A DNA stretch of 64,000 nucleotides from an uncultured Desulfovibrionaceae bacterium (GTDB taxonomy: Bacteria; Bacillota; Dethiobacteria; DTU022; UBA8154), in the NCBI GenBank assembly GCA_964567295.1, contig CAZMLU010000001.1, positions 8,606 through 72,605 of the forward strand, in the 5' to 3' direction. Every line of letters begins with the position of its first letter. The stretch's first letter is position 1. The notes under the pieces were generated by a model. The model did not search any database, was not told the origin of the DNA, and was given only the letters and a program-made list of their open reading frames with translations. A program made the translations under genes and the position numbers. Below, in pieces: positions 2,733 through 33,554 of this stretch.

Positions 2733-3812
2733 CTACTTCTCCCTGGTGTTAAAACGATCGGAATAGGGCGGGGAGGGGCCGGGCGAGCTAAAAAAGCCCC
2801 GTATGCTGTTCAGGCGCCTCACCCCCAGCAGGAAAAGAAGAAAGATAACGGGAATCAGGTAGATATGAAGACCGCTGAAACGGTCAAATGCAATAGCGGC
2901 TAGACCGAAATAAATACTGGAGAGATAGAGCACCATAACCGTCTGCCTGGTGCTCAGGCCTACATTTAAAAGGCGATGATGGATATGGCCGTTATCAGCT
3001 TTGAAGATAGGGCGATGGCTGCGGTAACGGCGCCACATGGCATATAAGGTATCGGTTATGGGAAGTCCCAGGATTAGCACGGGAATAATTAGGGTGGTCA
3101 GTGTGGCCTGCTTTGTGACACCGATGATGGAAAAGCCGGCCAACATAAAACCCAAAAAAAGGCTTCCCGTATCTCCCAGGAAGATCCGCGCAGGGGAGAA
3201 ATTATGAGGCAGAAAACCCAGGGCTGCACCTGCCAGAACGAGAACCAGCAGGGGAACCTGGAGCGGAACCAGGGGAACTTCCCCCAGGGTCAGGGCAAAC
3301 ATGACCAGGGCCGCAATGGCAGAAACACCCGTTGCCAAGCCGTCAACACCGTCTATCAGGTTAACGGCATTGGTTATCCCCACCACCCAGATCACGGTGA
3401 GGGGGACGACCAGGGCACCCAGGAAAACCAAATCCTGGAAGGGAATGGTAATAAACTCGATCCGTATGTTATAGGCGACCAACACCAGGGCAGCTGCAAA
3501 CTGCCCGGCAAACTTGAGTTTGTAGGAAAGTCCTTTTATATCATCATAGAGACCCAGGAGCACGATAAGGGTGCTGCCCCAGAAAAGGCCCCAGAATTCA
3601 GCGCCTCCTCCTGTAAAAAGCAGGGTTATCCCTGCCGTTAACCAGAAAGCGAAGTAGACAGCCGCACCGCCAAGCAGGGGCATAGCCTTACCATGGAGCT
3701 TGCGCTTGTCAGGATAATCCAGGACGCCGACCCTGAACGCCAGGCGTCGAAATATTGGAGTAAAAATAAAGGAAAGCACAAAAGCCAGCACCAGGGGCAG
3801 GTATACCTGCAT
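2733..3812 (-). CDS. tagO: Undecaprenyl-phosphate GlcNAc-1-phosphate transferase (WecA/TagO/MraY family)
   Basis: 359-aa polytopic membrane protein. The N-terminus FRRLAFRVGVLDYPDKRKLHGKAMPLLGG and the DD/NxxD region fit WecA/TagO. Confidence 0.8.
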   Translation of the reverse strand: MQVYLPLVLAFVLSFIFTPIFRRLAFRVGVLDYPDKRKLHGKAMPLLGGAAVYFAFWLTAGITLLFTGGGAEFWGLFWGSTLIVLLGLYDDIKGLSYKLKFAGQFAAALVLVAYNIRIEFITIPFQDLVFLGALVVPLTVIWVVGITNAVNLIDGVDGLATGVSAIAALVMFALTLGEVPLVPLQVPLLVLVLAGAALGFLPHNFSPARIFLGDTGSLFLGFMLAGFSIIGVTKQATLTTLIIPVLILGLPITDTLYAMWRRYRSHRPIFKADNGHIHHRLLNVGLSTRQTVMVLYLSSIYFGLAAIAFDRFSGLHIYLIPVIFLLFLLGVRRLNSIRGFFSSPGPSPPYSDRFNTREK

Positions 3813-4019
3813 AAAAAGAGATCACCAAACTTTCCTAAAAAATTATGAACAAGGTTAAATTCGCGAAAGAGGGGAAAAAATCCTGCTGTTTAAAAAAATT
3901 TGGATGATGGTTATCTATATCACAATCCATCGCTTACTGGTAAATGACGTGCAAAAACCATTATGGTTACGCCTGCAGGAAAAATAAATTGCTGAACACC
4001 TTTGCCTTAATAAAAAAAA

Positions 4020-5087
4020 TCACTGCACCACATGGATGGGATTGCTGTAAATCCAGGGACGGGGCTTTCCCAGGCGCGGACACCAGTATACTTCCGCACG
4101 AAAAACACCCGGCTTTAAAACCTTGAAAGCCAGTACCTGCTGGCGGGTCTGATAGACTTCCTTCCCGTTTTTAAGCAGGCGAATAAGCCCCCGGGGGGAG
4201 GGAGAGACAATACGCAGCACGGTGGTGGGGGAGTGTGTGATCCTGCCGCACATGTAGACCTCTTCCTCGCCGCCATAGTTTAAAGCGGAAAAACGAAAGC
4301 CCCTGGCAGGATGCACATAATCGCTGCCAATAAAAAAATTACCGCACCGCAAAGCGGCAAGGAGCTGCTCAATGGCTTCCCGGGAATCTTCTTGCAGTTT
4401 TTTATTTAAAACTACGTGGGTGTTTAAGGTGCGAAATAAAAAGTTATAGTGGAAAAAATGCAGCTTCAAAGGCCCGAACTGTGCCGGAAAGCTGTGGGCA
4501 TCACTACCGGCAAAACCAAATACGGGGCGCCGGCGGTTGAGCTGGTCCCAGAGCTCCAGGCCTTCGGGATCAGGCCAGCGGGCGCCGCGATAGGTATCTA
4601 TATAATACCAGAAAAGGGCGCAGGCCATGTTGGAATAAGCTGATCTCCACAGGGAGCTGAAATTCCATATCTCAAGGCCTGAAAAGTTTTCTACATCCCG
4701 TTTGTCCCAGGGAAAGCTGCGGCCTTTCATGAAAAGGGGATTGGCCTTCTCCACGGGATGGGCCAGGTAACCGAAGCCTCCCCGAGCATTGACGGTATCT
4801 ATGACACGCTGAGGATTTTCGTTATCAGTAGGAATACCTTCTTCCTGCAGGCCAAAGGCAATATAGTGGTTTTTGACGGTGTTCAGTTCTATCCCCACCA
4901 GCACCAGTACCCCCTGGTGCCTGCCGCTCCAGCCCTCCTTCAAAGCCGCCAGGGTATTGTGATCCGTTATGCCCACAAAATCCAGGCCCGCCCGGCGCGC
5001 AGAGCTCACAATATCCTGGATTGAGCCGTTGCCGTCTGAAAAGGAAGAGTGAATATGAAGATGTCCTGTATACTCAAACTTATCCAT
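4020..5087 (-). CDS. PHP-domain metal-dependent phosphoesterase-like protein
   Basis: The HLHIHSSFSDGNGS motif marks a PHP domain. Start refined to the internal ATG at 5087 (MDKFEYTGH...), which has a GGTGA ribosome-binding site and avoids overlap with the upstream MreB-like gene. Confidence 0.6.
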   Translation of the reverse strand: MDKFEYTGHLHIHSSFSDGNGSIQDIVSSARRAGLDFVGITDHNTLAALKEGWSGRHQGVLVLVGIELNTVKNHYIAFGLQEEGIPTDNENPQRVIDTVNARGGFGYLAHPVEKANPLFMKGRSFPWDKRDVENFSGLEIWNFSSLWRSAYSNMACALFWYYIDTYRGARWPDPEGLELWDQLNRRRPVFGFAGSDAHSFPAQFGPLKLHFFHYNFLFRTLNTHVVLNKKLQEDSREAIEQLLAALRCGNFFIGSDYVHPARGFRFSALNYGGEEEVYMCGRITHSPTTVLRIVSPSPRGLIRLLKNGKEVYQTRQQVLAFKVLKPGVFRAEVYWCPRLGKPRPWIYSNPIHVVQ

Positions 5088-7364: not shown

Positions 7365-9332
7365 TTATTTATCGGTAAAGAGGCGGTAATCCGCTTTTGT
7401 CCCTTTTACCTCGATAAGCTGTCCATTAAAAAGTTCCAACATCTGCCTGATAAAGTAATCGTCCTTTTCGTCCTTTTCGTCCTTTTCGCCCTTTTGGACA
7501 ACCTTCTCTTTTGCGGCGGCGTTTTTCCCCGTCTGCCCTGTTTTCTTTTCCTCCTGCCCCGCTTTTTCTGCCAGGATCACTTTCAGGGATACCTGTTCTT
7601 TTAGTATCTTGGAAAGGAGTGCCTCCAAATATTTTTTATTATCAGCAGACTCGATCCGCTTCTTTTGCACACCGGCAGTTGAAGGAAGGGCAACAGTAAG
7701 CAGGCTTCCTTTACGTGATTGCAAGCTTGCCTGATGAAAAGCGGAATACAGGAAGTGCTTACCCTCCTGCTTCAACAAAGGTAGAAATGTTTCCTCCCAA
7801 AACCGTGCCAGCTCTTCCGGAGGAGACCCGGGAGGAATCTGACCGGCACCTTCACTTTCGAAAACCTGGCTTTCACCTGTTACTTCCTCTGTTTCTGCCG
7901 CTTTTTCTGCCGCTTTTTCTGCCGCTTTTTCTGCCGCTTTTTCCCGCTTCAAGGTCTCTTCTGGCGGGGGTTGCTCCTCTGTCGAAGAAGCCTCTGGAAA
8001 CCTGTCCTCCTGGGCAGGAGGGGCTTCCTCGGGCAGAGGAATATCCTCCTCCTCAGCAGAAGGGGGCTTTCCTTCTTCCTCCTCAGCAGAAGGGGGCTTT
8101 CCTTCTTCCCAGACTGGGGCTTTTTCCTGCAGCATCCCCAGACCTGCCCGGGCCAATTTATCCTCCAGCTCCTCCAGGCGGGAAAGAAGTCCCTCGGGCG
8201 AAAGATAGTTGCGGAAGCGATAGGCACGGGCCATTCTCAAAAAGGACAGTTCCAGTAAAAACTGCGGCTGGGAGGCGCCTTTTAACTGGTAAGTAAGGTC
8301 CTGCAGGATCTCCAGCATTTCTAAAATCACAGCATGATGAAACTTTTCCCTGTGCTTATGGAGGTAGGGTGCCAGGGAGGGAACATCTTCCAGAACATCT
8401 TCCCGCCCGCTTCCCACCTGCAGCACCATCAGCTTGCGCAGGTAAAGAATAAGTTCGCGCAGGAAGCGGTGCAGATCCCTGCCACCGTGCATGATGGAGG
8501 CAATAGTCTCCAGGCCGCTCTCCGTATCATCATCTATCACTGCCTGGAGAAGGTTGTAGATAACCTCCGGCGAAGCCAGGCCCATGATCTCCAGGACTTC
8601 CTGCTGATCGATCTTTTCTCCTCCGTAAGCGCGACACTGTTCCAAGAAACCCAGGGCATCGCGCACGGAGCCTTCGGCCAGGCGGGCCAGCAGGTACAAG
8701 GTCTCCTCTTCCACGGAAAATTTCATTTCTGCTGCTATTTCACGGAGCTTGCCCACTACCTCGACCGGTTCCAGCAGGTGAAAATCAAAGCGCTGGCAGC
8801 GGGAAATAACCGTTGGAGGTAGTTTGTGAACCTCGGTAGTGGCCAGGATAAAAACCACTCCGGAAGGAGGTTCTTCCAGGGTTTTAAGCAATGCGTTAAA
8901 AGCTTCGTTGGTGAGCATATGCACTTCGTCGATAATGTACACCTTGTAACGGCTGGAGGCAGGGGCATAACGCACTTTTTCGCGCAGATCCCTGATCTCA
9001 TCAATGCCGCGGTTAGAAGCAGCATCCAGCTCCAGCACATCCATGCTGCGTCCATCCAGGATTTCCAGGCAGCTTTGACAGTTATTGCAGGGTTCAGGAT
9101 TTACCCCTTCCCTGCAGTTCAGGGCCCGCGAAAAAAGCTTGGCCAGGGTTGTCTTGCCTGTTCCCCGCAGTCCGCAAAAAAGATAGGCGTGGGCTACGCG
9201 GTCAGCCTTCAGCGCATTTTGCAGGGTGCGGGTAACATGCTCCTGCCCCACGACCTCGGAAAAGAGGCGAGGCCTGAATCGGCGGTATAACGCGGTATAA
9301 GTATTGTTTTTGAGGGAAAAACCCCTGGACAT
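7365..9332 (-). CDS. dnaX: DNA polymerase III subunit tau/gamma
   Basis: ALYRRFRPRLFSEVVGQEHV, the P-loop GLRGTGKTT and the Zn module CNNCQSC. Start set at the ATG at 9332 (GAGGTG ribosome-binding site) rather than 9365. The linker region is long and repetitive. Confidence 0.9.
   Translation of the reverse strand: MSRGFSLKNNTYTALYRRFRPRLFSEVVGQEHVTRTLQNALKADRVAHAYLFCGLRGTGKTTLAKLFSRALNCREGVNPEPCNNCQSCLEILDGRSMDVLELDAASNRGIDEIRDLREKVRYAPASSRYKVYIIDEVHMLTNEAFNALLKTLEEPPSGVVFILATTEVHKLPPTVISRCQRFDFHLLEPVEVVGKLREIAAEMKFSVEEETLYLLARLAEGSVRDALGFLEQCRAYGGEKIDQQEVLEIMGLASPEVIYNLLQAVIDDDTESGLETIASIMHGGRDLHRFLRELILYLRKLMVLQVGSGREDVLEDVPSLAPYLHKHREKFHHAVILEMLEILQDLTYQLKGASQPQFLLELSFLRMARAYRFRNYLSPEGLLSRLEELEDKLARAGLGMLQEKAPVWEEGKPPSAEEEEGKPPSAEEEDIPLPEEAPPAQEDRFPEASSTEEQPPPEETLKREKAAEKAAEKAAEKAAETEEVTGESQVFESEGAGQIPPGSPPEELARFWEETFLPLLKQEGKHFLYSAFHQASLQSRKGSLLTVALPSTAGVQKKRIESADNKKYLEALLSKILKEQVSLKVILAEKAGQEEKKTGQTGKNAAAKEKVVQKGEKDEKDEKDDYFIRQMLELFNGQLIEVKGTKADYRLFTDK
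7460..7495. repeat. Coding tandem repeat, 4 copies of a 9-bp unit (CGTCCTTTT), encoding (KDE)n at the DnaX C-terminus
   Basis: Direct reading inside dnaX. Confidence 0.85.
7895..7942. repeat. Coding tandem repeat, 4 copies of a 12-bp unit (CTGCCGCTTTTT), encoding (KAAE)4 in the DnaX linker
   Basis: Direct reading inside dnaX. Confidence 0.9.
8048..8107. repeat. Coding tandem duplication, 2 perfect copies of a 30-bp unit, encoding EEGKPPSAEE twice in the DnaX linker
   Basis: Direct reading inside dnaX. Confidence 0.9.
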
Positions 9333-10214: not shown

Positions 10215-10306
10215 TGGCGGAGAGAGAGGGATTCGAACCCTCGATGCGGTTTTGCCGCATACCCGCTTTCCAGGCGAGCGCCTTCGTCCAACTCGGCCAT
10301 CTCTCC
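10215..10306 (-). tRNA. tRNA-Ser (anticodon GGA)
   Basis: Manual fold: acceptor GGAGAGA/TCTCTCC, D-arm GCCGAGTTGG, anticodon loop CUGGAAA, long variable arm, T-loop GGTTCGAATCC, encoded CCA. Confidence 0.9.
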
Positions 10307-12520: not shown

Positions 12521-14533
12521 TTAGCGCATGGCCCGCATGGCATTTAGAACGGCCAACAGGGCCACGCCCACATCGGCGAAAACTGCTTCCCAGAGGGAAG
12601 CCAATCCGGCGGCTCCCAGGAGGAGGACAATGGCCTTGATACCCAGGGCTAAGACCACGTTCTGGACAACGATACCCCTGGTTTTTCGGGCGATGGATAT
12701 CGCTTCCGCCAGCTTGGAGGGCTCACCGGTCATAAGCACCACGTCGGCGGCTTCCACGGCGGCATCAGAGCCTATACCACCCATGGCCACCCCGATATCC
12801 GCCCGGGCAAGGGCAGGTGCGTCATTAATACCATCGCCGACAAAGGCAACTTTTTTCTTGCCTTTCTGCTCGCTTTGAAGCCGTTCCAAGATCTCCACTT
12901 TCTGGTGAGGAAGCAGCTCGGAGTATACACGGTCGAGACCAATTTTTTGGCCGATCTTGTCAGCAACCGCTTTTCTATCTCCTGTGAGCATAACAATATT
13001 ACGCACACCTAGATTTCTCAGGGCCTGCACGGCAGCAGAAGTATCTTCCCTCAGCACATCCTCCACTTTGATGCTGCCTGCATATTTTCCCCCTATCGCC
13101 AGGTGCACCCGGTTCCCGGATATTTCTTCTTGCACAGGAACCCCGTACTGCTCCAGCAGCCTGCTATTCCCCATAAGGACTTCTCCTTTCGGGGTCAGCA
13201 GTTTCACTCCTCTCCCCGATATCTCCGTAAAGCTTAGAGCCTTATAGTCTTCCTTTTCAGCACCTGTTTTGGCTGCTGCCGTGCCGGCACCTCCGGGCCT
13301 GACTTCTTTCTCTTCCCAGGCCCGCAAGACAGAAACAGCTACGGGATGGGAGGAATAACGAGAAGCAGAAGCAGCACAGCGCAAGAGTTCCCTTTTCGTA
13401 AAACCAAGGGCGGGGGATATTTCTTGGAGCTGGAAAGAGCCCCGGGTCAAAGTGCCTGTTTTATCAAAAATCACTGTGCCGATATCGCTGAGGGCCTCCA
13501 GAAAATTGCCTCCTTTGACCAGGATTCCCCTGCGGGATGCGCCGCCGATACCTCCCCAGAAACCCAGTGGAATGGATATAACAAGGGCACAAGGACAGGA
13601 TATGACCAGGAACACTAACGCCCTGTAGCTCCAGGTTGCAAAGGTCTGGTCGGCAATCAAGAGGGGCGGCAGCAAGGCCAGCAATACCGCCGCAGCTACC
13701 ACTACGGGGGTATAGTAGCGGGCGAAACGGGTTATAAAGCGTTCAGTCTGCGCTTTTCGGGAAGCCGCACTTTCTACCAGGGAGAGAATACGGCTCACTG
13801 TAGATTCTTTATATTCCCTGGCTACCTCTATACTTAACAGGCCGCCCTGGTTAATAGAGCCCGAGAGGACCTGGTCTCCAGCGTTTATCTCCCGCGGCAG
13901 GGACTCTCCGGTCAGGGCAGAGAGATCAAGGGTGGTTGAACCCTTAAGGACACTGCCGTCCAGGGGCACCCTTTCCCCCGGGCGGACTTCTATAATGTCC
14001 CCCGCCCGGACCAGGTGGGGAGATACTTTAGTGGTGCCTTCTCTCCCACGGAGATGGGCATAGTCAGGACGAATATCCATTAATTCCCGGATAGAACGGC
14101 GGGAACGTTCCACGGCTCGTCCTTGGAGCAGCTCGCCTACCTGGTAGAAAATCATTACCGCTACCCCTTCGGGATACTCCCCGATGGCAAAAGCCCCCAG
14201 GGTGGCTATGGACATGAGGAAATTTTCGTCGAAAACACTGCCCCGGATAATATTTCGCCCTGCCGTTAGCAGAACTCCGTTTCCCCAGAGCAGGTAGGCA
14301 GCGGCAAAAACAAGCAGCTCCGCCGGATCCTGCAGGGGCAGAAGAAGGCCAGCGGCGAACAATAGGGCGCCAACCCCGAAGAGGAAGGGCCTGGCGCGGG
14401 CAAAGAAATAGCTACCGGCAGCAACTATTTCCTTTTCTCCCTCCGGGCTACCGCTGACTGAGGAAAAGGGGGAATCTACGGTGCAACAACATCCCGCAGC
14501 GCCGGATACACAATTTTCGCTTTGAGCAGACAT
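12521..14533 (-). CDS. P1B-type heavy-metal-translocating ATPase (Zn/Cd/Co-type)
   Basis: 670 aa; the CPC motif (SCPCALV), DKTGTLT, HP, GDGINDAPAL and a Cys-rich N-terminus (CVSGAAGCCC). Adjacent to an ArsR/SmtB repressor. Confidence 0.9.
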   Translation of the reverse strand: MSAQSENCVSGAAGCCCTVDSPFSSVSGSPEGEKEIVAAGSYFFARARPFLFGVGALLFAAGLLLPLQDPAELLVFAAAYLLWGNGVLLTAGRNIIRGSVFDENFLMSIATLGAFAIGEYPEGVAVMIFYQVGELLQGRAVERSRRSIRELMDIRPDYAHLRGREGTTKVSPHLVRAGDIIEVRPGERVPLDGSVLKGSTTLDLSALTGESLPREINAGDQVLSGSINQGGLLSIEVAREYKESTVSRILSLVESAASRKAQTERFITRFARYYTPVVVAAAVLLALLPPLLIADQTFATWSYRALVFLVISCPCALVISIPLGFWGGIGGASRRGILVKGGNFLEALSDIGTVIFDKTGTLTRGSFQLQEISPALGFTKRELLRCAASASRYSSHPVAVSVLRAWEEKEVRPGGAGTAAAKTGAEKEDYKALSFTEISGRGVKLLTPKGEVLMGNSRLLEQYGVPVQEEISGNRVHLAIGGKYAGSIKVEDVLREDTSAAVQALRNLGVRNIVMLTGDRKAVADKIGQKIGLDRVYSELLPHQKVEILERLQSEQKGKKKVAFVGDGINDAPALARADIGVAMGGIGSDAAVEAADVVLMTGEPSKLAEAISIARKTRGIVVQNVVLALGIKAIVLLLGAAGLASLWEAVFADVGVALLAVLNAMRAMR

Positions 14534-16348: not shown

Positions 16349-16440
16349 TGGCGGAGAGAGTGGGATTCGAACCCACGAGGCGCGCTAACGCCTACTCGAT
16401 TTCGAGTCGAGCGCCTTCAACCGGACTCGGCCATCTCTCC
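16349..16440 (-). tRNA. tRNA-Ser (anticodon CGA)
   Basis: Manual fold: GGAGAGA acceptor, anticodon loop CUCGAAA, long variable arm, GGTTCGAATCC T-loop, encoded CCA. Confidence 0.9.
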
Positions 16441-16473: not shown

Positions 16474-16502
16474 ATTATACAGCAGGCGAAATGGCTTGTA
16501 AA
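16474..16502 (-). promoter_or_regulatory. Sigma-A-type promoter for tRNA-Ser(CGA)
   Basis: On the minus strand: TTTACA, a 17-nt spacer, then TATAAT, about 30 nt upstream of the mature tRNA 5' end. Confidence 0.6.
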
Positions 16503-16602: not shown

Positions 16603-16941
16603 TTAAGCAGTTGTTATCTGCTGATGCTGGCAGTGAGGACAGGTCACCTTGATCTTGCCTTTCCCCCCGGGCACGCGCAACTTGGATGAGCAGTTTTCAC
16701 AAGAAATGGTAACCTTACTGAGCAGCTGGTCAAGCCTGGCCCGGTCAAACCCGGCCACTACTTCTTCCCCAATCAAAAAGGCTGGTACACCCTGCAGGCC
16801 CTTGCCGGTAAATTCTTGCATTGCTGCAGGATCCTTCTGAACATCTTTTTCTTCATAATCGATTCCTTTTTCGCGAAGATATCTCTTCGCCGTGTTGCAG
16901 TGGGATCAGGTTTGAGTTGTAAACATGATCACTTTTTCCAT
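16603..16941 (-). CDS. Glutaredoxin-like selenoprotein (UxxC active site) with a C-terminal zinc ribbon. The in-frame TGA at 16906..16908 is predicted to encode selenocysteine
   Basis: The ORF track shows only the C-terminal 72 aa. Extending the frame upstream gives MEKVIMFTTQT-[TGA]-SHCNTAKRYLREKGIDYEEKDVQKDPAAMQEF..., a complete Grx fold in which the TGA sits exactly where the first Cys of CPxC would be. The ATG at 16941 has an AGAGAGG ribosome-binding site, and there is a stem-loop 15 nt downstream of the UGA. Confidence 0.7.
16873..16890 (-). promoter_or_regulatory. Candidate bacterial SECIS hairpin
   Basis: GCGAAGA-GAUA-UCUUCGC, a 7-bp stem with a 4-nt loop, beginning 16 nt 3' of the in-frame UGA. 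Confidence 0.4.
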
Positions 16942-16979
16942 AATTAAAAACCTCTCTTTCTTTTTTTCATAATACTCTT

Positions 16980-17432
16980 TTACCTTCTTTCCTGGAAAAA
17001 CCCTCTTAATAGAAGCGCACAACTTTTTTCAAGGACCCCTTCAACCACTTCCAGGCGATGGTTGAGCCGTGGGTCATTTGTGATGTTGTAAAGGGAACAA
17101 ACGGCACCGGCCTTGGGGTCTCTGGCACCAAAAACCAGCCTGGGAACGCGAGCCTGGACCAGGGCTCCTGCACACATGGGACAGGGTTCCAGAGTTACAT
17201 AGAGGGTGGCTTCCAGCAGGCGCCAGCTGCCCAGCTTTTCGCCTCCCCGCCGCAGCACCAATATCTCGGCATGTGCGGTGGCATCTCTCAGTTCTTCACG
17301 GCGGTTGTGGTCTGCGACCAGAATTTCTCCTTCCTTAACCAACACGGCCCCTATAGGCACCTCGCCTTTCCGAAACGCCTCATTAGCCTGCTCCAGTGCT
17401 ATTTCCATATATTTTTCATCTTCTAATTTCAT
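16980..17432 (-). CDS. tadA: tRNA-specific adenosine deaminase
   Basis: 150 aa; HAEILVLRR ... TLEPCPMCAGAL, a CDA-fold zinc motif. Confidence 0.85.
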   Translation of the reverse strand: MKLEDEKYMEIALEQANEAFRKGEVPIGAVLVKEGEILVADHNRREELRDATAHAEILVLRRGGEKLGSWRLLEATLYVTLEPCPMCAGALVQARVPRLVFGARDPKAGAVCSLYNITNDPRLNHRLEVVEGVLEKSCALLLRGFFQERR

Positions 17433-18272: not shown

Positions 18273-18349
<77 letters not shown>

Positions 18350-18355
18350 ATGGCA

Positions 18356-18450
18356 TGGCGGAGAGAGAGGGATTCGAACCCTCGAAGCGGGCTTTAACCC
18401 GCTTAATCGCTTAGCAGGCGACCGCCTTCGACCAACTCGGCCATCTCTCC
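18356..18450 (-). tRNA. tRNA-Ser (anticodon GCU)
   Basis: Manual fold: anticodon loop CUGCUAA, long variable arm, GGAGAGA acceptor, CCA. Confidence 0.9.
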
Positions 18451-18465
18451 GCGTTTTTCGCGCTC

Positions 18466-18553
18466 TGGCGGAGGGGGTGGGATTCGAACCCACGGCTCTT
18501 ACGAGTCACCGGTTTTCAAGACCGGCTCCTTAAACCACTCGGACACCCCTCCC
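18466..18553 (-). tRNA. tRNA-Ser (anticodon UGA)
   Basis: Manual fold: anticodon loop CUUGAAA, long variable arm, GGGAGGG acceptor, CCA. Confidence 0.9.
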
Positions 18554-20735: not shown

Positions 20736-22124
20736 TTAATCCAGCACGCGGGCAAAAGAATATTTTTCTAAAAATTTTTGTATACCTTCTTTCAGGTAAA
20801 CTTCTTCTGCTTCATCGGCAGGGCAGCGTAAATTTTCCCAACTCTCCCATAAGGGTTGTAGCAGTTTTTCTTCACCCAAGCCCCTTTTTTGCAGACCTTT
20901 TTCTGCTATCTGCAGCACCTCATAGCAGATATCCTTGATTCTCTCACCGGCCATATGTGCCTGCATGCCGTTGCGGAGCGCATCCTCCCGCCCTTCTTCC
21001 AGGTCTTCCCATTCAAAGGTATCCACAAAAGACTGGGCTGGAAGCAGCTTCTCCATAATGCCCAGGGTAAAGGCCGCCGGAACCAGCAGTCTGCCTGGAG
21101 GCTGCTGGCAGTTGACACGGTTCTCCAGGGTATAGTAGCCGGAAAGCCGCGCATCGTTCCAGCAGAAGGTGTAGTGCAGGTCAAAATCTTCATCTCTGGG
21201 GACAAGGGGGACCCTCTCCCCATTTTCCGTTTCACCGGTCGCCTTTTTGGCTGCTGCCCAGTACTCGGCAAAAGAGGAGTAGTGCCCGATCCCGTAGTAT
21301 TCTTTATCCCGCTTGACGTAGACCGGCTTAAAACCGGAAATAAAGATCATATAATCTGTAAGGGAGCCAAAACGGCGCGGAGTCATACCGACACGGGGAT
21401 TGCCGGGTAGCCAGCGGTGCCATAAATTTTGGCTAAGGGCCTTATACTCGCGGTCTACCGTTCCGCCCCAGATATTAGAATTAGCATTCAGGGCAACCTC
21501 CATCCCCGAAAGGGCGTTAAAGACATTGACTGCCGCTGCCGTTTCTTCCGTAGTGACATCCACGTGGACCTGGTTGGTGCAGGTCACGGTAAAATAATTT
21601 ACCCTGCGGTTTCCGAAAGATTTATTCCAAAAAAGGTTGCGCTGCTTTTTGGTCATCAAGTCGTCGCTGGGAGAAGTAAGGGGCTGCATACCATAACAGA
21701 GGAAATAAACTCCTCCGCCTTGCTGCTCCCGGAAATTTTCCAACAGCTCCGCCAGAAATTTAATTTTTTCTTGCAAATACCAGAGATTTTCTTTGTAGCC
21801 CAGGGATAGCTCCAGCTTGCAGTAACCGGTTTCGGTGCCGGCCAGGTCTTCTGCAGGTTCTCCATTCAGCGTAGCACCGATGGGCTGCTTATAATAAGGA
21901 TCGGTAATTACATCCCACCCTTCTGTCCCCAGGAATTCCCATAATTTTTGCATGGTTTCCCGGGAGACTGCCTCGCCTTTGTGGTTAACCACCGGGAATT
22001 TTAGCTCCACGCCCACATGCCTTTTTCCTCCTTCCCTTTCTTCGTCCTTCTCCTCGAAGCTCTCCTCCCATTGTTCTATAACTTCATCCAGCTGATCATT
22101 GTCCTTATGGTTTAACATAATCAC
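20736..22124 (-). CDS. Carboxylate-amine ligase of the glutamate-cysteine ligase family 2 (GCS2/EgtA/YbdK-like)
   Basis: 462 aa; an HVGVELKF... N-terminal motif and an NQVHVDV motif typical of GCS2-type gamma-glutamyl ligases. The assignment is moderate. Confidence 0.5.
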   Translation of the reverse strand: MIMLNHKDNDQLDEVIEQWEESFEEKDEEREGGKRHVGVELKFPVVNHKGEAVSRETMQKLWEFLGTEGWDVITDPYYKQPIGATLNGEPAEDLAGTETGYCKLELSLGYKENLWYLQEKIKFLAELLENFREQQGGGVYFLCYGMQPLTSPSDDLMTKKQRNLFWNKSFGNRRVNYFTVTCTNQVHVDVTTEETAAAVNVFNALSGMEVALNANSNIWGGTVDREYKALSQNLWHRWLPGNPRVGMTPRRFGSLTDYMIFISGFKPVYVKRDKEYYGIGHYSSFAEYWAAAKKATGETENGERVPLVPRDEDFDLHYTFCWNDARLSGYYTLENRVNCQQPPGRLLVPAAFTLGIMEKLLPAQSFVDTFEWEDLEEGREDALRNGMQAHMAGERIKDICYEVLQIAEKGLQKRGLGEEKLLQPLWESWENLRCPADEAEEVYLKEGIQKFLEKYSFARVLD

Positions 22125-23626: not shown

Positions 23627-24277
23627 CTATTCAATACCAAGCTCGTTTTTTACCACTTTTACTGCTTCCAGTACATTTTCTCCATAAAGATCAGCCTTGA
23701 TTTCTTCGGCAAACTCTTCTGTTACCGGTGCTCCGCCCACGATGATCTTAAGCTTACCATCTTTTCTAAACCCTGCACCGTCTATGGCTTCCACTGTCTG
23801 CGTCATGGCCGGCATGGTGCTGGTAAGCAGCGCGGACATACCTACTATATTGGGTTTGTATTTTTCAATAGCATCTACAAAGGCACCTGGAGCAACATTG
23901 ATACCGATATCGATCACTTCAAAACCGTTTGCGGTAAACATCATCTCTACCAGGCTTTTACCGATATCGTGGATATCTCCTTCCACTGTCCCCAGAACCA
24001 TCTTGCCCTTCATCCTCACTTCTTTCTGCTGGGATTCCAACAAGGGGCGCAGTATTTCCAGGGCCGAGTGCATGGTGCGAGCAGAAAGCATTACTTCGGG
24101 AATAAACATTTCATCTGCCGCAAAGCTCTTGCTTACCACTTCCATGCCCGACATGAGTCCTTCTTCCAGAACTACCTCCGGCTCCATGCCTTCATCCAAC
24201 GCTTTCTGTACCAGGGATTTTACCCCATCGATATCTCCTTCAATTATAGTCTTAGATAGTTCTTCCATCATTGACAT
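23627..24277 (-). CDS. Corrinoid (B12-binding) protein of a methyltransferase system
   Basis: A B12-binding cap plus a Rossmann fold with the DxHxxG motif (GDIHDIGKS). Start set at the internal Met (MSMMEEL) to avoid overlap with the upstream gene. Confidence 0.8.
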   Translation of the reverse strand: MSMMEELSKTIIEGDIDGVKSLVQKALDEGMEPEVVLEEGLMSGMEVVSKSFAADEMFIPEVMLSARTMHSALEILRPLLESQQKEVRMKGKMVLGTVEGDIHDIGKSLVEMMFTANGFEVIDIGINVAPGAFVDAIEKYKPNIVGMSALLTSTMPAMTQTVEAIDGAGFRKDGKLKIIVGGAPVTEEFAEEIKADLYGENVLEAVKVVKNELGIE

Positions 24278-24305
24278 AAATAAAAATCTCCTTTCCTGTT
24301 GAGTA

Positions 24306-25118
24306 TCATATAACCAGAACGCCTTTGCGGAAAGCCCGTAGATATTTTCCACAGTACGGGTCTTGTCCTGTTAAGGCCCGGGTGGCAAAGACAGAACTCA
24401 TTACCGCCTTATCTAAGGGATTAAGAAGGGCAGAATCCAGGCCCACTCCCATAGCCAGAACCAGGTATGTCCTATTGAGAAGAGCACGCTGGGGCAGGCC
24501 GTGAGAAATGTTGGTCAAACCGATTGTAGTCTTAACACCCAGTTTATCTCTGAATTGTTGCAGTGACTCCAAGGTTACCTCGCCGCTTTTGTCATCAACA
24601 CCCAGGGGAAAAGCCAACGGGTCAAAGTAAAAACTCTCCTTCGAGAAACCCATTTTCTCAGCCCGTTCTAATATTTCAGTGGCCACCTGGAGCCGGCCTT
24701 CCACATCCTTGGGTATACCTTTATCGGTAGCAGGGAGGGCAACAACAGAGCAATCGTACTGGCGAGCCAGTTCCAGGAAGGGTTCCAATCTCCCTTCTTC
24801 AGCGCTGATCGAATTAAGCATGGCTCCCTGACCGAACGCTTTCAAGCCTGACTCTAAAACTTCTATACTCGTAGTATCAATTGTCAAAGGTTTCTGTGTT
24901 ACTTCTTTGATCAACTCTACCGCCCATTTCATATCTTCTACTTCCTTTTCAGCTTTTCCCCTGCCGGTAGCCACATTGACATCTATATAATCTGCACCGG
25001 CTTCGTCCTGTTGCCGGGCTAAATCCTGAATAAAATCGCTATCGTGGTTGATAACAGCCTCCCGCACCGATTTGCGTGTGGCGTTAATAAGTTCTCCGAT
25101 AATAAGCATAAAAACCAC
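24306..25118 (-). CDS. Methyl-corrinoid:tetrahydrofolate methyltransferase (pterin-binding MtrH/MtgA/AcsE-like, the MT2 component)
   Basis: 270 aa; a pterin-binding TIM barrel (IGELINATRKS ... DYIDVNV ... LTIDTT). Confidence 0.75.
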   Translation of the reverse strand: MVFMLIIGELINATRKSVREAVINHDSDFIQDLARQQDEAGADYIDVNVATGRGKAEKEVEDMKWAVELIKEVTQKPLTIDTTSIEVLESGLKAFGQGAMLNSISAEEGRLEPFLELARQYDCSVVALPATDKGIPKDVEGRLQVATEILERAEKMGFSKESFYFDPLAFPLGVDDKSGEVTLESLQQFRDKLGVKTTIGLTNISHGLPQRALLNRTYLVLAMGVGLDSALLNPLDKAVMSSVFATRALTGQDPYCGKYLRAFRKGVLVI

Positions 25119-25151
25119 TCCTTATTAATTGATCTTCCTGGTCTGGCGGTC

Positions 25152-26588
25152 TTACTTGATCTCCTTGAAATCTGCCTGGACTTTTTCCCGTGGCCCCTGC
25201 TGTAAGGGGTCTGCCTGATGATTCTTTAACAATTCTTTGGCAATCCTCCTGGCACGCTCAGCGGCATCCAGGGAACCATCTTTTTCCCAAAGTTTTCTGG
25301 ACTGCCTATCCGAAACTTTCGTATAGTAAAATTCGTTACGAAAATGTTTGATCGTGTGCTGCTCCGAGAGAAAGTTTCCGCCCGGGCCAACACGACGGAG
25401 CACTTCTTCGGCAAGAGTATCTTCATTAACCTCTATTCCCTTTACGGCTCTGAGGCAGATACCGATAATCTCGTTATCGATCACCATCTGCTCATAAGAA
25501 GCAGTTGTGCAGAACTCCAGGATCCCCGCAGCGTCATGAATATAGTTGGCACCGGCCAGAGAGGCTATCATTGAAGTAGCAGCTTTTTCATATCCCGCCT
25601 GGCAGTCAGGCAATTTACTATCAGACATACCTGCTGTGGCATAAAAAGGAATACCGTAATGTTGAGCCATCTGTGCCAAACCGGAGTTGATCAACCCCGA
25701 CTCAATACTTCCGGCCAGGTAAGAACCTGATTTCATATCCATGTTGGTAGCCACGGAACCATAAAGAGTTGGGGTGCCTGGGTTTACCAGTTGGGCCAGG
25801 ATAACCCCGGTCAAGGTTTCTATATTATTGGTAGCGATAGTGCCGGCCAGTGTACAAGGGCCGGTAGCACCGGCCAACGGCTCAGCAGGTGTCGCCAGGG
25901 GCAAGCCCTGGCGTGCCACTTCAATGAGAAAATCGGTATACTTGTTATCCAACAACATTGGACTCATAACGCAGGTTATGAAAGAAACAAAAGGTCTTTC
26001 CCTTAATTTGGCAGGCCCGCCGGCCAGCATCTCAGACATTTGTATCACTCGCTTAAGGCCTTCTAAGGTATAGGTTCCACCCATCACATGCTTGGAGGTG
26101 TTGGAAAAAGAGTGGAAAAAGCGGTTAACATCCACTTCCTGCAACTGCAGGTCCGTAGGGTATACGTTGATCACAAAAAAGGATACATTGTCAAGGGCAT
26201 CGGTTATCAGGGCAAAGTTTTTAACGTCTTCCAGGGTTGTGGGTCGCCGCTGGCCAGTCTCCAGGTCCAGGCAATTCAGCACTGTCCCACCGGTTCCCGA
26301 GTAGGTACGAGAGCCTTCCAGGGTCAGATCATGCTCTTCTTTGCGGCCGCAGAGGACCACCTTAGAAGGTGCAGAGTTTACCGCTTCTTCCAGCATAGAC
26401 CGTGGGATCTTCACAATCTGGGTTTCGTGGTCAACACCTGCCCCTTTTTGTTCAAAAATCTCCAGCGCCTGATTGTTGGGAATCTTGACCCCTACTTCTT
26501 CCATAAGACGCACAGTCATTTCATGAATGGAGTTAATATCTTTGTCGGTGAGAGGTTTGAAGCGCCCACCCTGTTCACCATGTATCAT
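25152..26588 (-). CDS. MttB-superfamily quaternary-amine:corrinoid methyltransferase (non-pyrrolysine member)
   Basis: 478 aa, uninterrupted (no in-frame TAG). The N-terminal LTDKDINSIHEMTVRLMEEVGV pattern and the length are typical of the MttB/MtgB family. Confidence 0.85.
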   Translation of the reverse strand: MIHGEQGGRFKPLTDKDINSIHEMTVRLMEEVGVKIPNNQALEIFEQKGAGVDHETQIVKIPRSMLEEAVNSAPSKVVLCGRKEEHDLTLEGSRTYSGTGGTVLNCLDLETGQRRPTTLEDVKNFALITDALDNVSFFVINVYPTDLQLQEVDVNRFFHSFSNTSKHVMGGTYTLEGLKRVIQMSEMLAGGPAKLRERPFVSFITCVMSPMLLDNKYTDFLIEVARQGLPLATPAEPLAGATGPCTLAGTIATNNIETLTGVILAQLVNPGTPTLYGSVATNMDMKSGSYLAGSIESGLINSGLAQMAQHYGIPFYATAGMSDSKLPDCQAGYEKAATSMIASLAGANYIHDAAGILEFCTTASYEQMVIDNEIIGICLRAVKGIEVNEDTLAEEVLRRVGPGGNFLSEQHTIKHFRNEFYYTKVSDRQSRKLWEKDGSLDAAERARRIAKELLKNHQADPLQQGPREKVQADFKEIK

Positions 26589-26621
26589 TTAACAGCCTCC
26601 TAATCGATTGTTTTATAACTA

Positions 26622-27866
26622 CTACTTGGTTACACGAATGATCGACACCAGCCCGTGTCCCAACCCCATACCCCGTTGCAAGCTCATCTCCAAGCTGCGC
26701 AGGGCCAGTCCCAGCTGAGTCTCGATGAGATCGGCGCGTACATCACCGTAAAGTTCACGGCTGGCATCCACTGTAACTTTCATGGCCTTGTACCCTTTCT
26801 TTAAGGCCGGGAAAGAAGTTTCCGGCTCCCTGGGGTGAGCGGCGCCCCGATTGTCATAATGTTCCAGCAGATCGATTGTATAATTTATGAGGGAGTTCCA
26901 GGCTCCCGCCAGGTTGGAAAGTATCCTGTTCTGCCAGGCAAAGCCTTCCTTGGGGCGGTAGTCGACCAGCAGGTCGGGGAAATAGGTACGCAGGCCGGGC
27001 TCAAAAAGAGAGGAGACCATCAGACGGAGAAGCTGGGGGTTATCATTGTAGGTTCCCGTCTCCATATGGCGCCCCACAAAAATGGAACGGTCAAAAAAGC
27101 GCAAAATCTCCAGGTCAACTCCAGTTTTTTGGGAAGCTCTATCCACAATCTCTGAAACCTCTTGTGGAGTCATGAGCCTCATTGGAAAAGAGGAAACCTC
27201 TATTTCGTCTCGCTGCTCCTCGTCGTAGAGGTAATTGATTTTGTAATCAATATAGGGGCGCTGATGAATATCTTGAGTCCACAAGTTTTGCCACTCGTAA
27301 GAGTAACGACCGACCCAGTCCCCGAGAATAATGCTGCCATCATGGCCATGCCTGGCGATATCCATCAACAGCTTTTCTATCTCCTGGTCTGTACAGTGCG
27401 AAAATGTCCCGTAGGAGGTAAAGTAGAGATCATAGGGCGCTTCATTCTCCTCCAGGGGAAGCCCGTCGGAAAAATCACCTTTGCAGAAGTTGACATGATC
27501 GTAATGCCCCAGGAGGTTTTCACCTTCTTTGAGCAGCTCAATGCTCAGATCCACTCCTTTATAATGCTCTAAAAGCTCTTCCGGTATAAGGCGGTTATCA
27601 TGTTCCGAGAGCCGGGACTTGGCCGGAAGAGTGCTAAGGAGCTGGTAACCGTCCCCGGTCCCACATCCCAGGTCATAAAAACGCAGCCCTTCTTTCTCCT
27701 TTTTCTTTTCGTTCACGATGGACTCCAGGTAAGGCCTCAAGAAAAAGCAGGTAATCATATCTTCCCAGACCACTCGAACATGATCATATTTTCCGCGCAG
27801 ACTTCGGACATGTTCACTGTATCGACCATGAGCAACCGCTTCTTGGTAAGCTTCATTAGCTTTCAT
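26622..27866 (-). CDS. Class I SAM-dependent methyltransferase, EgtD-like (histidine-specific Methyltransf_33-like), with a roughly 200-aa C-terminal extension
   Basis: 414 aa; motif I FYDLGCGTGDG, GVDLS, F.KGDF...LP and FTSYGTFSH ... HDGSIILGDWV. The last of these echoes the EgtD motifs (CGDF; FLGSTIGN; PGDSLLLGTD). Confidence 0.55.
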   Translation of the reverse strand: MKANEAYQEAVAHGRYSEHVRSLRGKYDHVRVVWEDMITCFFLRPYLESIVNEKKKEKEGLRFYDLGCGTGDGYQLLSTLPAKSRLSEHDNRLIPEELLEHYKGVDLSIELLKEGENLLGHYDHVNFCKGDFSDGLPLEENEAPYDLYFTSYGTFSHCTDQEIEKLLMDIARHGHDGSIILGDWVGRYSYEWQNLWTQDIHQRPYIDYKINYLYDEEQRDEIEVSSFPMRLMTPQEVSEIVDRASQKTGVDLEILRFFDRSIFVGRHMETGTYNDNPQLLRLMVSSLFEPGLRTYFPDLLVDYRPKEGFAWQNRILSNLAGAWNSLINYTIDLLEHYDNRGAAHPREPETSFPALKKGYKAMKVTVDASRELYGDVRADLIETQLGLALRSLEMSLQRGMGLGHGLVSIIRVTK

Positions 27867-27869
27867 TGT

Positions 27870-28565
27870 CTATTTATCCCCCCTTACCATAAGTTTTTCG
27901 GCAAGAGTAACTGCAGCGAATGCATCCGCTCCGTAAGCATCAGCTCCTATTTCTTGGGCAAATTGATCTGAAGTTGGTGCTCCGCCGATGATCACTTTTA
28001 CTTTATCCCGTAGATTCCTACTCTCCAGTTCTTTAATGGTCTTAGCCATTAAGGGCATCGTGGTATCCAGAAGAGCGGAAAGCCCTATAAGGCCGGCTTC
28101 TTCTTTTTCTACTTCATCTGCGATACGGCTGGCCGGAACATTAATACCCAGGTCAACTACAGCGAATCCGGCGCCTTTAAGCATAATAGAGACCAGGTTT
28201 TTGCCGATATCGTGAATATCTTTTTCCACAGTAGCCATGATCACTTTCCCCTTACCCTCTTTGCTTCCCTTTTTAACAAGGTGGGGCTCCATAATCTCCA
28301 TGGCTGCGCCTACAGCTTCCGCTGAAGAAAGCATATCGGGAATGAAGTATTCTCCTGTTTCATATTTTTCTCCTACCAATTCCATGCCGCGGCTTAATCC
28401 CTCAGCGAGGATCTTCTCTACATCCATGCCTTGCTCAAGGGCCTCTTCGACAAGCTCGGTAACACCCGGCTGCCCCTCAAACCCTTCATCTATACCTTCA
28501 TCATCCTTATCCCTGCGTCCTTGCAGAACATTCGAAACAATTTTTTCAATATAGTCTTCTGACAT
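27870..28565 (-). CDS. Corrinoid (B12-binding) protein of a methyltransferase system
   Basis: 231 aa; DxHxxG (EKDIHDIGKN) and a B12-binding Rossmann domain. Confidence 0.85.
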   Translation of the reverse strand: MSEDYIEKIVSNVLQGRRDKDDEGIDEGFEGQPGVTELVEEALEQGMDVEKILAEGLSRGMELVGEKYETGEYFIPDMLSSAEAVGAAMEIMEPHLVKKGSKEGKGKVIMATVEKDIHDIGKNLVSIMLKGAGFAVVDLGINVPASRIADEVEKEEAGLIGLSALLDTTMPLMAKTIKELESRNLRDKVKVIIGGAPTSDQFAQEIGADAYGADAFAAVTLAEKLMVRGDK

Positions 28566-28686
28566 AACCCTTCCTCCTTAAGCGAATATACGTTCGTTTT
28601 TTGGTGATATTCCTCCTACGGAAACCTTAAGCTAAGCCACCGGATCTTCACAAGTGCTGCGGCAAAGCATATGAAGGCACCATTCT

Positions 28687-30225
28687 TCACTCCGCATAGG
28701 GATTAAGACGAGCCAAAAGGCCTGGAACACGGTCAAATATCTCTTTGCAGATCTCCTGCGATAGGTGATTTGGTGGATTGGAAAGCAGCTTTTGGACCTG
28801 TGCGTGAGCTTCCAACAGTGTATCGTCCTGGTCCTCCAAGTCGCCCTGGAAGGGATAATTGGGGAATATCCCACCCCGGCGCAGGGCGCGACGGGCATAA
28901 CGGGCGTAAAGCCTGTTTGGGCTGTTCATTACCTTGTTGATAATATCTTTCTGCTCTTCCATTGTTTCGGTAGAGACCTCGGGTTCACGGCATAAGAACT
29001 TGGCCATGCCAATATGGTGATTGTCCAACAGGGCCTGCTCCACAGAAAAAGTCATTGTTTTCTCCAATAGGCCAAAAGAATAATGGATCAAGCCCGGGGC
29101 AGCCAGCGGCACGGTTGAGTGAGTAAGCATTTTTTCCGCTGCGGCCTGCATTCCTGGCACCTTGGAGTCACCTACTCCTGCAGTGGAATAACAGGGTATC
29201 CCATAATGCTTGGCCATTTGAGCGCAACAAGCATTATAGTGAAAGAGCTCGGGCACACCGTACATATCATGCAGATTGTCCATGCGCGCCCGAACGGGCA
29301 CTGCACCGTAAATAACCGGCGCTCCCGGTGCGGCTAACTGGTTAATAATAACTCCCGTAAGCACCTCTGCATTTACCTGGGCCACCATCCCTGCCTCATC
29401 TATAGGAGCTGTAGAACCTCCCTGGGGTGAGGTAGATATGATTACGGGAAGTCCCATGCGGGATACCGCCATAAGCTTCTCGGCAGTCTCATCCACTACC
29501 TGTAAAGGGCTTTTGATCACCGAGGTGATAAAAGAAACCAGGGGATTTTCCTTTAGCGCTTCTCGACCACCCGCGATAATCTCTGCCATCTTAACCACAT
29601 TATCCAGCTGGCGAAAATCGGTAAGGCCTCCCATAACATGCTTTGACGTGTTGTTGAGCGAAGCAAAAAACTTGTTAACGTCCTTGTTTTCTTCGGTAAT
29701 ATCCTTGTCCTGAACATTTACATTGCGCAGGAAAAAATCCAGGTTCTCCAGGTTTTCAGCCAGATGGGCTGAAACACAGAGATCGGCCACAGTCCCCCTT
29801 CTGCGAGTTATGGCGGGAAACACTCTTTTGTTTTGGGGATTATCCTGGGAGACAAACGTTTCCGGATGAACTTCCAACCAGATATTAGTTTCCGAACCTG
29901 AACCAAAATGGACCCTCATCTCTTCTGTATCCAACTGCAAGCTGTGTTCGGGATCTCTGGCACCCAGGGTTATCTTATGGGGAACAGTTTCCAGCACCTG
30001 CTCTACTACGCGCGGGGGAATGCTTACCCACCAGGCTTCATGCTCACCTTCCCTGGTGGGGGTAGAACTCGCCCCCGCCTTTTCCAGCATCCCCACAGCC
30101 TCCCTGTTGTAAAACAGAATTCCGGGCTTTTCCAACAGTGCCAGGGAAGTACGATGCACCAGTTCCACTTGCTCCGCAGTTAATCGATTGTACGGATTAC
30201 GTACTACTACTCCTTTTCTACTCAA
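28687..30225 (-). CDS. MttB-superfamily quaternary-amine:corrinoid methyltransferase (non-pyrrolysine member), second paralogue
   Basis: 512 aa, uninterrupted. LTAEQVELVHRTSLALLEKPGI aligns with the paralogue's N-terminus. The apparent start is TTG, with no adjacent SD; the nearest AGGAGG is 36 nt upstream. Confidence 0.8.
   Translation of the reverse strand: MSRKGVVVRNPYNRLTAEQVELVHRTSLALLEKPGILFYNREAVGMLEKAGASSTPTREGEHEAWWVSIPPRVVEQVLETVPHKITLGARDPEHSLQLDTEEMRVHFGSGSETNIWLEVHPETFVSQDNPQNKRVFPAITRRRGTVADLCVSAHLAENLENLDFFLRNVNVQDKDITEENKDVNKFFASLNNTSKHVMGGLTDFRQLDNVVKMAEIIAGGREALKENPLVSFITSVIKSPLQVVDETAEKLMAVSRMGLPVIISTSPQGGSTAPIDEAGMVAQVNAEVLTGVIINQLAAPGAPVIYGAVPVRARMDNLHDMYGVPELFHYNACCAQMAKHYGIPCYSTAGVGDSKVPGMQAAAEKMLTHSTVPLAAPGLIHYSFGLLEKTMTFSVEQALLDNHHIGMAKFLCREPEVSTETMEEQKDIINKVMNSPNRLYARYARRALRRGGIFPNYPFQGDLEDQDDTLLEAHAQVQKLLSNPPNHLSQEICKEIFDRVPGLLARLNPYAE

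Positions 30226-30511: not shown

Positions 30512-33554
<3,043 letters not shown>

Follow-up and report, generated by a model that had tools for sequence, protein, structure and literature searches.

A probable selenocysteine-containing glutaredoxin with a putative C-terminal zinc ribbon, truncated in gene calls, on a contig of an uncultured bacterium

Background

Glutaredoxins (Grx) that contain selenocysteine (Sec) are a known kind of bacterial selenoprotein, and gene callers routinely truncate or mistranslate the genes that encode them. Here, we describe a probable gene of this kind on the minus strand (16941..16603) of a stretch of 64,000 nucleotides, called the window in the following, which comes from an uncultured bacterium (GenBank contig CAZMLU010000001.1, 8,606 to 72,605) and corresponds to record positions 8697..72696 of a 74-kb contig. 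A count from 2006 already included Sec-glutaredoxins of Alkaliphilus, Moorella and Geobacter (PMC1794560), and Grx (PF00462, with the motif UxxC) is listed among the experimentally verified prokaryotic selenoproteins (PMC13188914, PMC9312934). The protein cGrx1, whose active site is U/C-P-x-C, occurs naturally as a selenoprotein and has been proposed to be the reductant of the selenoprotein MsrA; in the crystallised cGrx1 proteins, Sec was replaced by Cys (PMC7642778).

Judging from the comparisons described below, the frame in the window very probably encodes a full-length Sec-glutaredoxin of 112 residues, in which U12 of the motif U-S-H-C would be the attacking residue. This corrects the annotation, which so far consists of a hypothetical protein of 72 residues. 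With it, a selenium-dependent thiol oxidoreductase would be present in an uncultured Bacillota lineage close to Dethiobacteria.

Results

The mechanical list of open reading frames (ORFs) holds only a piece of 72 amino acids at 16603..16821, and the public gene calls contain the identical fragment (P0001, 100% identity, no Pfam domain recorded). The whole segment 16941..16603 is nevertheless one frame with a sole internal stop, the TGA at 16908..16906. It reads MEKVIMFTTQT up to this TGA, resumes with SHCNTAKRYLREKG and closes with GVPAFLIGEEVVAGFDRARLDQLLSKVTISCENCSSKLRVPGGKGKIKVTCPHCQHQQITTA; the complete translation between the internal and the terminal stop is SHCNTAKRYLREKGIDYEEKDVQKDPAAMQEFTGKGLQGVPAFLIGEEVVAGFDRARLDQLLSKVTISCENCSSKLRVPGGKGKIKVTCPHCQHQQITTA. 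The N-terminus that starts from ATG 16941 matches the M-K-x-[IV]-[IV] starts of the homologues in the alignment. The TGA does not stem from an assembly error, since the N-terminal region is identical in six contigs from different samples. With TGA as the terminator of 10 of the 45 long ORFs in the window, the genetic code of the organism is the standard one.

To see what stands at the TGA in related genes, we used a profile of the first hits, which gave 80 loci in the GTDB species representatives; in 63 of the 80, the match extends over the glutaredoxin domain as well as the ribbon. Almost all of these loci come from Clostridia (Tissierella, Syntrophomonas, Clostridium, Desulfosporosinus, Desulfitobacterium, Alkaliphilus, Geosporobacter, Acetobacterium, Fusibacter and many metagenome-assembled genomes, MAGs). 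The codons were compared in 66 related genes, that is, in the window and 65 GTDB loci. The codon aligned to the TGA of the window is TGA in 48 of them and TGT or TGC in the other 18, while TGG does not occur (0/66); Sec forms are the majority within the Grx-ribbon family. The eleven codons 5' of the TGA are conserved as protein in all 66 genes (M-K-x-[IV]-[IVT]-[ML]-[FY]-[TS]-[TS]-x-T), C15 is invariant, and position 13 is Pro in at least 90% of the homologues. A UGA that is aligned to Cys in homologues, with both flanks conserved as protein, is expected of a Sec codon, and this is what the 66 genes show.

The closest relative, locus L093, encodes a protein that is 87% identical to that of the window (81% for the gene DNA), and it keeps the TGA. 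Between the two genes, 46 codons differ synonymously and 13 non-synonymously; of the 65 base differences, 52 lie at third positions, and three of the synonymous changes are found 5' of the TGA. The comparison revealed neither a frameshift nor a second stop in the ORF. By comparison, only 15 of the 38 nt immediately 5' of the ATG are identical. Judged by this pattern of substitutions, the whole frame of 112 codons is under purifying selection on both sides of the stop.

Next, we looked at the RNA downstream of the TGA. A hairpin (GCGAAGA-GAUA-UCUUCGC) begins 15 nt after the A of the UGA, with its loop at 16880..16883. Its energy is -10.8 kcal/mol (z = -3.85), a stability that is reached by 2 of 200 dinucleotide shuffles. 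Bacterial selenocysteine insertion sequence (SECIS) elements have been modelled with a loop of 3-9 nt, a stem of 4-16 bp, a G within the first two loop positions, a distance of 16-37 nt between UGA and loop and a minimum free energy of at most -7.5 kcal/mol (PMC13188914). The hairpin of the window lies within all of these limits, with a loop of 4 nt, 7 bp, a G at the first loop position, a distance of 22 nt and the energy given above.

The family has a hairpin at the same place, in two registers that are one base apart. At least six contiguous pairs can be formed in 34 of the 48 TGA forms and in 0 of the 18 Cys forms. Among the sequences in the register of the window (n = 20), 86% of the cells are paired, compared with 31-60% when the 3' partner is slid, and at three of the seven stem pairs both partners have changed (for example G-C / C-G / U-A at columns 21:34), a count that leans towards structure as the set was picked for pairing in this register. 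In L093 the stem is kept, with one G-C pair changed to G-U; the loop there is GGUA and the active site is U-P-H-C. The GAUA loop of the window arises by a synonymous change, AGG to AGA, relative to L093.

In an unbiased test, we replaced codons 6-14 after the UGA by synonymous codons and refolded the sequences. The TGA forms have a mean energy of -7.0 kcal/mol where -2.5 kcal/mol is expected (Wilcoxon p 7e-15, a value that overstates independence, as do the other p-values of the Sec and Cys comparisons, as the sequences are related). Individually, 29 of the 48 TGA forms reach p <= 0.05, and the window has -10.8 against -2.3 kcal/mol (p 0.01). No difference was found for the Cys forms (-1.9 versus -2.0 kcal/mol). 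Despite the relatedness of the sequences, the contrast in folding between the TGA and the Cys class is clear. A Cys form from a Desulfotomaculaceae MAG (L018, 3001..3342), with the active site C-S-H-C, still has 6 of the 7 hairpin pairs at the SECIS position, which suggests a recent conversion of Sec to Cys with an RNA structure that is decaying.

The original prediction, made from the window alone, had read this locus as a missed selenoprotein with Sec recoding rather than a pseudogene, and the alignment of the TGA with Cys together with the SECIS-like hairpin supports it. The separate parts of that proposal hold as well: the frame does run upstream through a single TGA to an ATG with a good Shine-Dalgarno sequence (AGAGG at 9 nt); the TGA was placed at the first catalytic Cys of CxxC, and 18 of the 66 genes have Cys at this very codon; and the hairpin, which was thought to suit a bacterial SECIS, turned out to be specific to TGA forms, with compensatory changes and selection at the RNA level.

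The domain scans were run with Cys substituted for the stop. The Pfam glutaredoxin model (PF00462) matches residues 4-62 over its full length (profile 1-60 of 60) with 55.8 bits at a cutoff of 22.9. For the structure we used the AlphaFold model of a Cys homologue, P0107, which is 52% identical, also has C-S-H-C and stands in for the window protein. This model (mean predicted local distance difference test score, pLDDT, 83.9) shows a glutaredoxin fold followed by four short strands, and it superposes on the cGrx1 structure 7c10 with a template modelling (TM) score of 0.93, a root-mean-square deviation of 0.8 A and 46% identity. Helix 1 of the model begins at residue 13. Two features of a glutaredoxin are present, the motif U12-S-H-C15 at the start of helix 1 and the cis-Pro loop; of the latter, all homologues share G51 and V52, and at least 90% of them have P53.

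The C-terminal part appears to be a CxxC...CxxC zinc ribbon, as had been predicted: all of 108 homologues have C81, C84, C101 and C104, and nearly all have R89, P91, K94 and G95 between the two knuckles, while the four strands of the P0107 model lie at its residues 76-110. Several zinc-ribbon models match the last 35 residues, all of them below threshold. The same prediction called the fusion of a glutaredoxin with a ribbon unusual, and in this it was mistaken, as a whole family of at least 335 protein clusters (E <= 1e-10) is built in this way as a rule. A fold search with the P0107 model found no solved structure with both a glutaredoxin domain and a zinc ribbon, and our literature searches found no paper describing such a fusion. 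The gene points to an uncharacterised glutaredoxin-zinc-ribbon architecture.

We inspected the best 120 of these 335 clusters. At the Sec position 66 of them have W and 44 have C, about 9 start just after the TGA, and Sec was seen in none; the names given to them are just "glutaredoxin family protein" or similar. For one entry, P0003 (locus L007), we read the DNA and found that the W is a TGA under table-4 translation. The W and truncated public entries (P0003-P0136) look like a systematic annotation error for the Grx-ribbon family. The family will be missed when the selenoproteome of Clostridia is counted from such gene calls. There are also close relatives that contain Sec and have no ribbon (P0014, P0015, 76 residues; loci L072-L074).

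The module of the tail, C-x-x-C-x-x-x-[LM]-R-V-P-[KR]-G-K-G-K-I-K-[VI]-T-C-P-x-C, also ends separate proteins of 130-170 residues in Parvimonas, Peptoniphilus, Finegoldia, Carnobacterium, Loigolactobacillus and spirochaetes. These are found at loci L075-L088 (for example L077, 2713..3105) and at about 1720..2170 in L026, L031, L032, L035 and L049; in L079 it is a larger frame of 407 residues that ends in the module. No curated family matches the proteins of 130-170 residues, and their N-terminal hydrophobic stretches look membrane-spanning. In Acetobacterium, a gene for such a protein, beside that of a J-domain protein, immediately precedes the Cys-form Grx-ribbon gene. In four Acetobacterium loci (L031, L032, L035 and L051, about 3362..5076) a protein of 569 residues directly follows the Cys-form gene. 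Its sequence resembles the pyridine-nucleotide disulfide oxidoreductases of the coenzyme A-disulfide reductase / NADH oxidase type, and it is a possible reductant partner, conserved in Acetobacterium only.

The features of the gene are summarised in Table 1.

Table 1. Coordinates of the proposed selenoprotein gene, its parts and the adjacent gene (window positions).
Feature	Position	Strand	Basis
Complete gene, proposed 112-residue Sec-glutaredoxin with C-terminal zinc ribbon	16603..16941	-	frame with one internal TGA; homologues collinear over residues 1-112
Start ATG; proposed Sec-UGA; TAA stop	16941..16939; 16908..16906; 16605..16603	-	
Shine-Dalgarno-like AGAGG	16951..16955	-	9-nt spacer to ATG; read from sequence
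In-frame UGA, proposed Sec codon, residue 12 (first position of UxxC)	16906..16908	-	
Redox motif U12-S13-H14-C15 (family consensus U/C-P-H-C)	16897..16908	-	
SECIS-like hairpin GCGAAGA-GAUA-UCUUCGC, 7 bp, 4-nt loop, encodes A18-R23	16873..16890	-	folding, comparative tests
Glutaredoxin (thioredoxin-fold) domain, residues 3-75, including cis-Pro loop G51-V52-P53	16717..16935	-	PF00462, 7c10 match, P0107 model
Putative C-terminal zinc ribbon, residues 78-108 (C81, C84, C101, C104)	16618..16710	-	Cys invariance, P0107 model
tadA-like deaminase gene, context only, not part of the selenoprotein	16980..17432	-	dCMP_cyt_deam_1

Genomic context

The tadA gene lies upstream on the same strand, and 38 nt separate its end from the ATG of the glutaredoxin gene. 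It had been pointed out before that tadA is directly upstream and co-oriented; this is correct, and the arrangement is the same in L093, but it is not seen across the family, so that the adjacency is specific to the lineage and not a family feature. Across 64 loci we found nothing common in the neighbourhood beyond close relatives, and hence no partner can be inferred from it. A gene for a heavy-metal P-type ATPase (12521..14533, minus strand) is located within 3 kb of the Grx-ribbon gene, as is the case in L011, L015 and L068, and these 4 of 64 loci are too few to call it an association. About 4 kb from the Grx gene there is a GCS2-family gene (glutamate-cysteine ligase type 2 / YbdK-like; 20736..22124, minus strand), which may bear on the low-molecular-weight thiol of the organism. 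No MsrA gene was found near the Grx gene on the parts of the contig that were looked up.

The window also contains four tRNA-Ser genes (GGA, CGA, GCU, UGA), a tRNA-Arg gene and a gene for seryl-tRNA synthetase (10215..10306, 16349..16440, 18273..18552, 30512..31879). A strong promoter-like site (11/12 match) belongs to tRNA-Ser(CGA) and lies at 16502..16474. The arginyl-tRNA synthetase (ArgRS) shares 60-66% identity with sequences of Dethiobacteria MAGs and 59% with that of Dethiobacter alkaliphilus, which places the organism no more closely than as an uncultured Bacillota lineage with Dethiobacteria as the nearest group.

By its Pfam labels, the segment at about 23627..30225 (minus strand) encodes methyltransferases of the MttB family and B12-binding corrinoid proteins (two of each), together with a pterin-binding protein and an aldehyde-dehydrogenase-like protein. 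This resembles a cluster for quaternary-amine or methylamine demethylation feeding tetrahydrofolate. Within it, the Rfam family PYLIS_3 (the mttB pyrrolysine insertion element) matches with 58.8 bits at 25529..25628 (minus strand), inside the ORF 25152..26588. We rejected a pyrrolysine reading of this match, as the ORF, of 478 residues and of the MttB family, has no in-frame TAG. It is a non-pyrrolysine MttB homologue, and the match reflects sequence similarity.

Discussion

If the gene is expressed as we propose, SelB with Sec-tRNASec would bind the hairpin 15 nt after the UGA and deliver Sec instead of termination, as in the established bacterial mechanism. By homology to the C. oremlandii Grx1, for which such chemistry has been demonstrated by experiment, the product would then form a U12-C15 selenenylsulfide while reducing disulfide or sulfenic/selenenic substrates. 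Glutathione, another thiol or a thioredoxin reductase could serve as its reductant. The four-Cys tail would bind a metal, probably zinc, and would most likely be a docking or targeting module for a partner and not take part in catalysis; this is the weakest step of the mechanism. One can go further and ask whether the seleno-glutaredoxins with a zinc-ribbon tail are a distinct, widespread and undescribed subfamily of Clostridia, with the tail as a docking or electron-entry module to a specific partner, which we regard as a tentative and rather doubtful idea. The tail could also bind iron as a rubredoxin-like centre, which would lead to a glutathione-independent reduction; at E <= 1, no rubredoxin model was listed for the tail.

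Several observations weigh against a Sec-glutaredoxin at this locus. Exact-protein look-ups from the start of the 74-kb contig to about window position 60600 gave no selA, selB or selD. There is no tRNA-Sec in the window, where ARAGORN found four tRNA-Ser and one tRNA-Arg and no anticodon UCA, and when all its ORF pairs that a TGA joins, with a Cys close by, were scanned, no other credible selenoprotein candidate emerged. Rfam contains no general bacterial SECIS model, and no SECIS family was found with it, neither at E <= 10 on 16780..16960 nor at gathering thresholds on the whole window, the hits for this gene being due to chance. The relatedness of the compared sequences, mentioned above with the p-values, belongs here as well. 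Furthermore, the window deviates from its family at two sites. Its Ser13 (codon 16903..16905) is an exception to the nearly invariant Pro, giving U-S-H-C and not U-P-H-C. At positions 27-28 after the U of the UGA, 42 of the 48 TGA forms have G-U and the window alone has A-U, the G of its loop being one base earlier than the conserved G27 of the family. Neither deviation breaks a defining rule. Both would allow for a less efficient recoding or an altered redox potential.

These deviations, the Sec machinery that was not seen on the parts of the contig searched and the gene callers that report just the fragment would all suit a relic, in which Sec decoding was lost or a nonsense mutation hit a Cys codon, the gene being dead, and noise or a fragment of 72 amino acids is left. 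We consider this unlikely. TGA is the majority state (48/66) and hence ancestral here, not a new lesion, the hairpin of the window is among the most stable of the set, and the comparison with L093 (46 synonymous to 13 non-synonymous differences) shows that the ORF as a whole, with the 11 codons 5' of the TGA, is under purifying selection. The callers also fit a situation in which translation yields only the downstream ORF, from the ATG at residue 41 to the end (72 amino acids). This zinc-ribbon protein would have an incomplete thioredoxin fold, the upstream part would be an untranslated leader and the hairpin would be regulatory. But residues 1-40 are conserved as protein with synonymous variation in the 66 genes and hold the catalytic motif and helix 1; M41 is not conserved, with mostly R at this position next to an A40 that is at least 90% conserved; and half a thioredoxin fold that lacks helix 1 as well as strand 1 would probably not be stable. 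It is hard to see this explanation being the right one.

The W that is found in 66 of the best 120 database clusters could be taken to mean that the UGA is read as Trp or Gly by a variant code, or by near-cognate suppression, without selenium. The W entries, as checked on P0003/L007, result from translating TGA with table 4; TGG is absent from the GTDB loci, and TGA ends 10 of the 45 long ORFs of the window. A Trp in the place of the nucleophile would abolish glutaredoxin chemistry, and this reading gives no role to a hairpin that is selected solely in TGA forms. We therefore hold it to be very improbable, and a Sec-glutaredoxin explains the locus best in our opinion.

Comparison with known systems

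The families with Sec in a glutaredoxin fold that are named UXX-star (NF041212, NF041114, NF041211, NF047338) have only weak similarity to the window protein, with scores below the cutoffs (51.1 versus 66, 30.7 versus 72 and 31.9 versus 100 bits). Going by the family name, their Sec is located three residues before the C-terminus, whereas it is residue 12 of 112 in the window. The NrdH-redoxins and the thioredoxin-like protein BC3987 of Bacillus cereus are of similar length and have a glutaredoxin fold (TM scores to the target of 0.84-0.91). The score for NrdH-redoxin (TIGR02194) is 48.9 bits at a cutoff of 85.75, and there are no nrd (ribonucleotide reductase) genes in the window or the related loci. 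The top NCBIfam match is the YruB family (TIGR02196), which aligns residues 3-74 with positions 1-73 of a profile of 74 and stays below its cutoff (82.4 versus 88.55 bits); unlike the window protein, this family is defined on Cys forms without a ribbon.

For the tail alone, the best match is Zn_ribbon_4 (PF13717; E 3e-5, 24.3 bits versus a threshold of 30.3), and the MJ0042-type model (TIGR02098) gives 15.7 bits versus a threshold of 20.9. The tail shares with these CxxC-x(16)-CPxC and a V-P plus a basic stretch between the knuckles, with scores below the gathering thresholds. As to the RNA, the hairpin corresponds to the bacterial SECIS consensus (bSECISearch type, with E. coli fdhF as the prototype) in being a stem-loop inside the ORF just 3' of the UGA. 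It has no sequence similarity to the fdhF element, and its loop is G-A-U-A, while the usual pattern is a G followed by G or U.

Among proteins of solved structure, cGrx1 of Clostridium (Alkaliphilus) oremlandii OhILAs is the best match (7C10/7C12; E 1.6e-18, 33 of 73 residues identical by hand count). It shares with the window protein the position of U/C-P-H-C at the start of helix 1. The differences are that cGrx1 is a chain of 84 residues without a ribbon, whereas the window protein has a tail of 35 residues with four Cys, and U-S-H-C in place of U-P-H-C. In summary, the gene very probably belongs to a known and experimentally validated selenoprotein family, and it leaves the understanding of Sec decoding and of glutaredoxins unchanged. 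The Grx-ribbon fusion is the usual form in a large clostridial subfamily, the Sec forms of which are mistranslated or truncated in the public collections examined.

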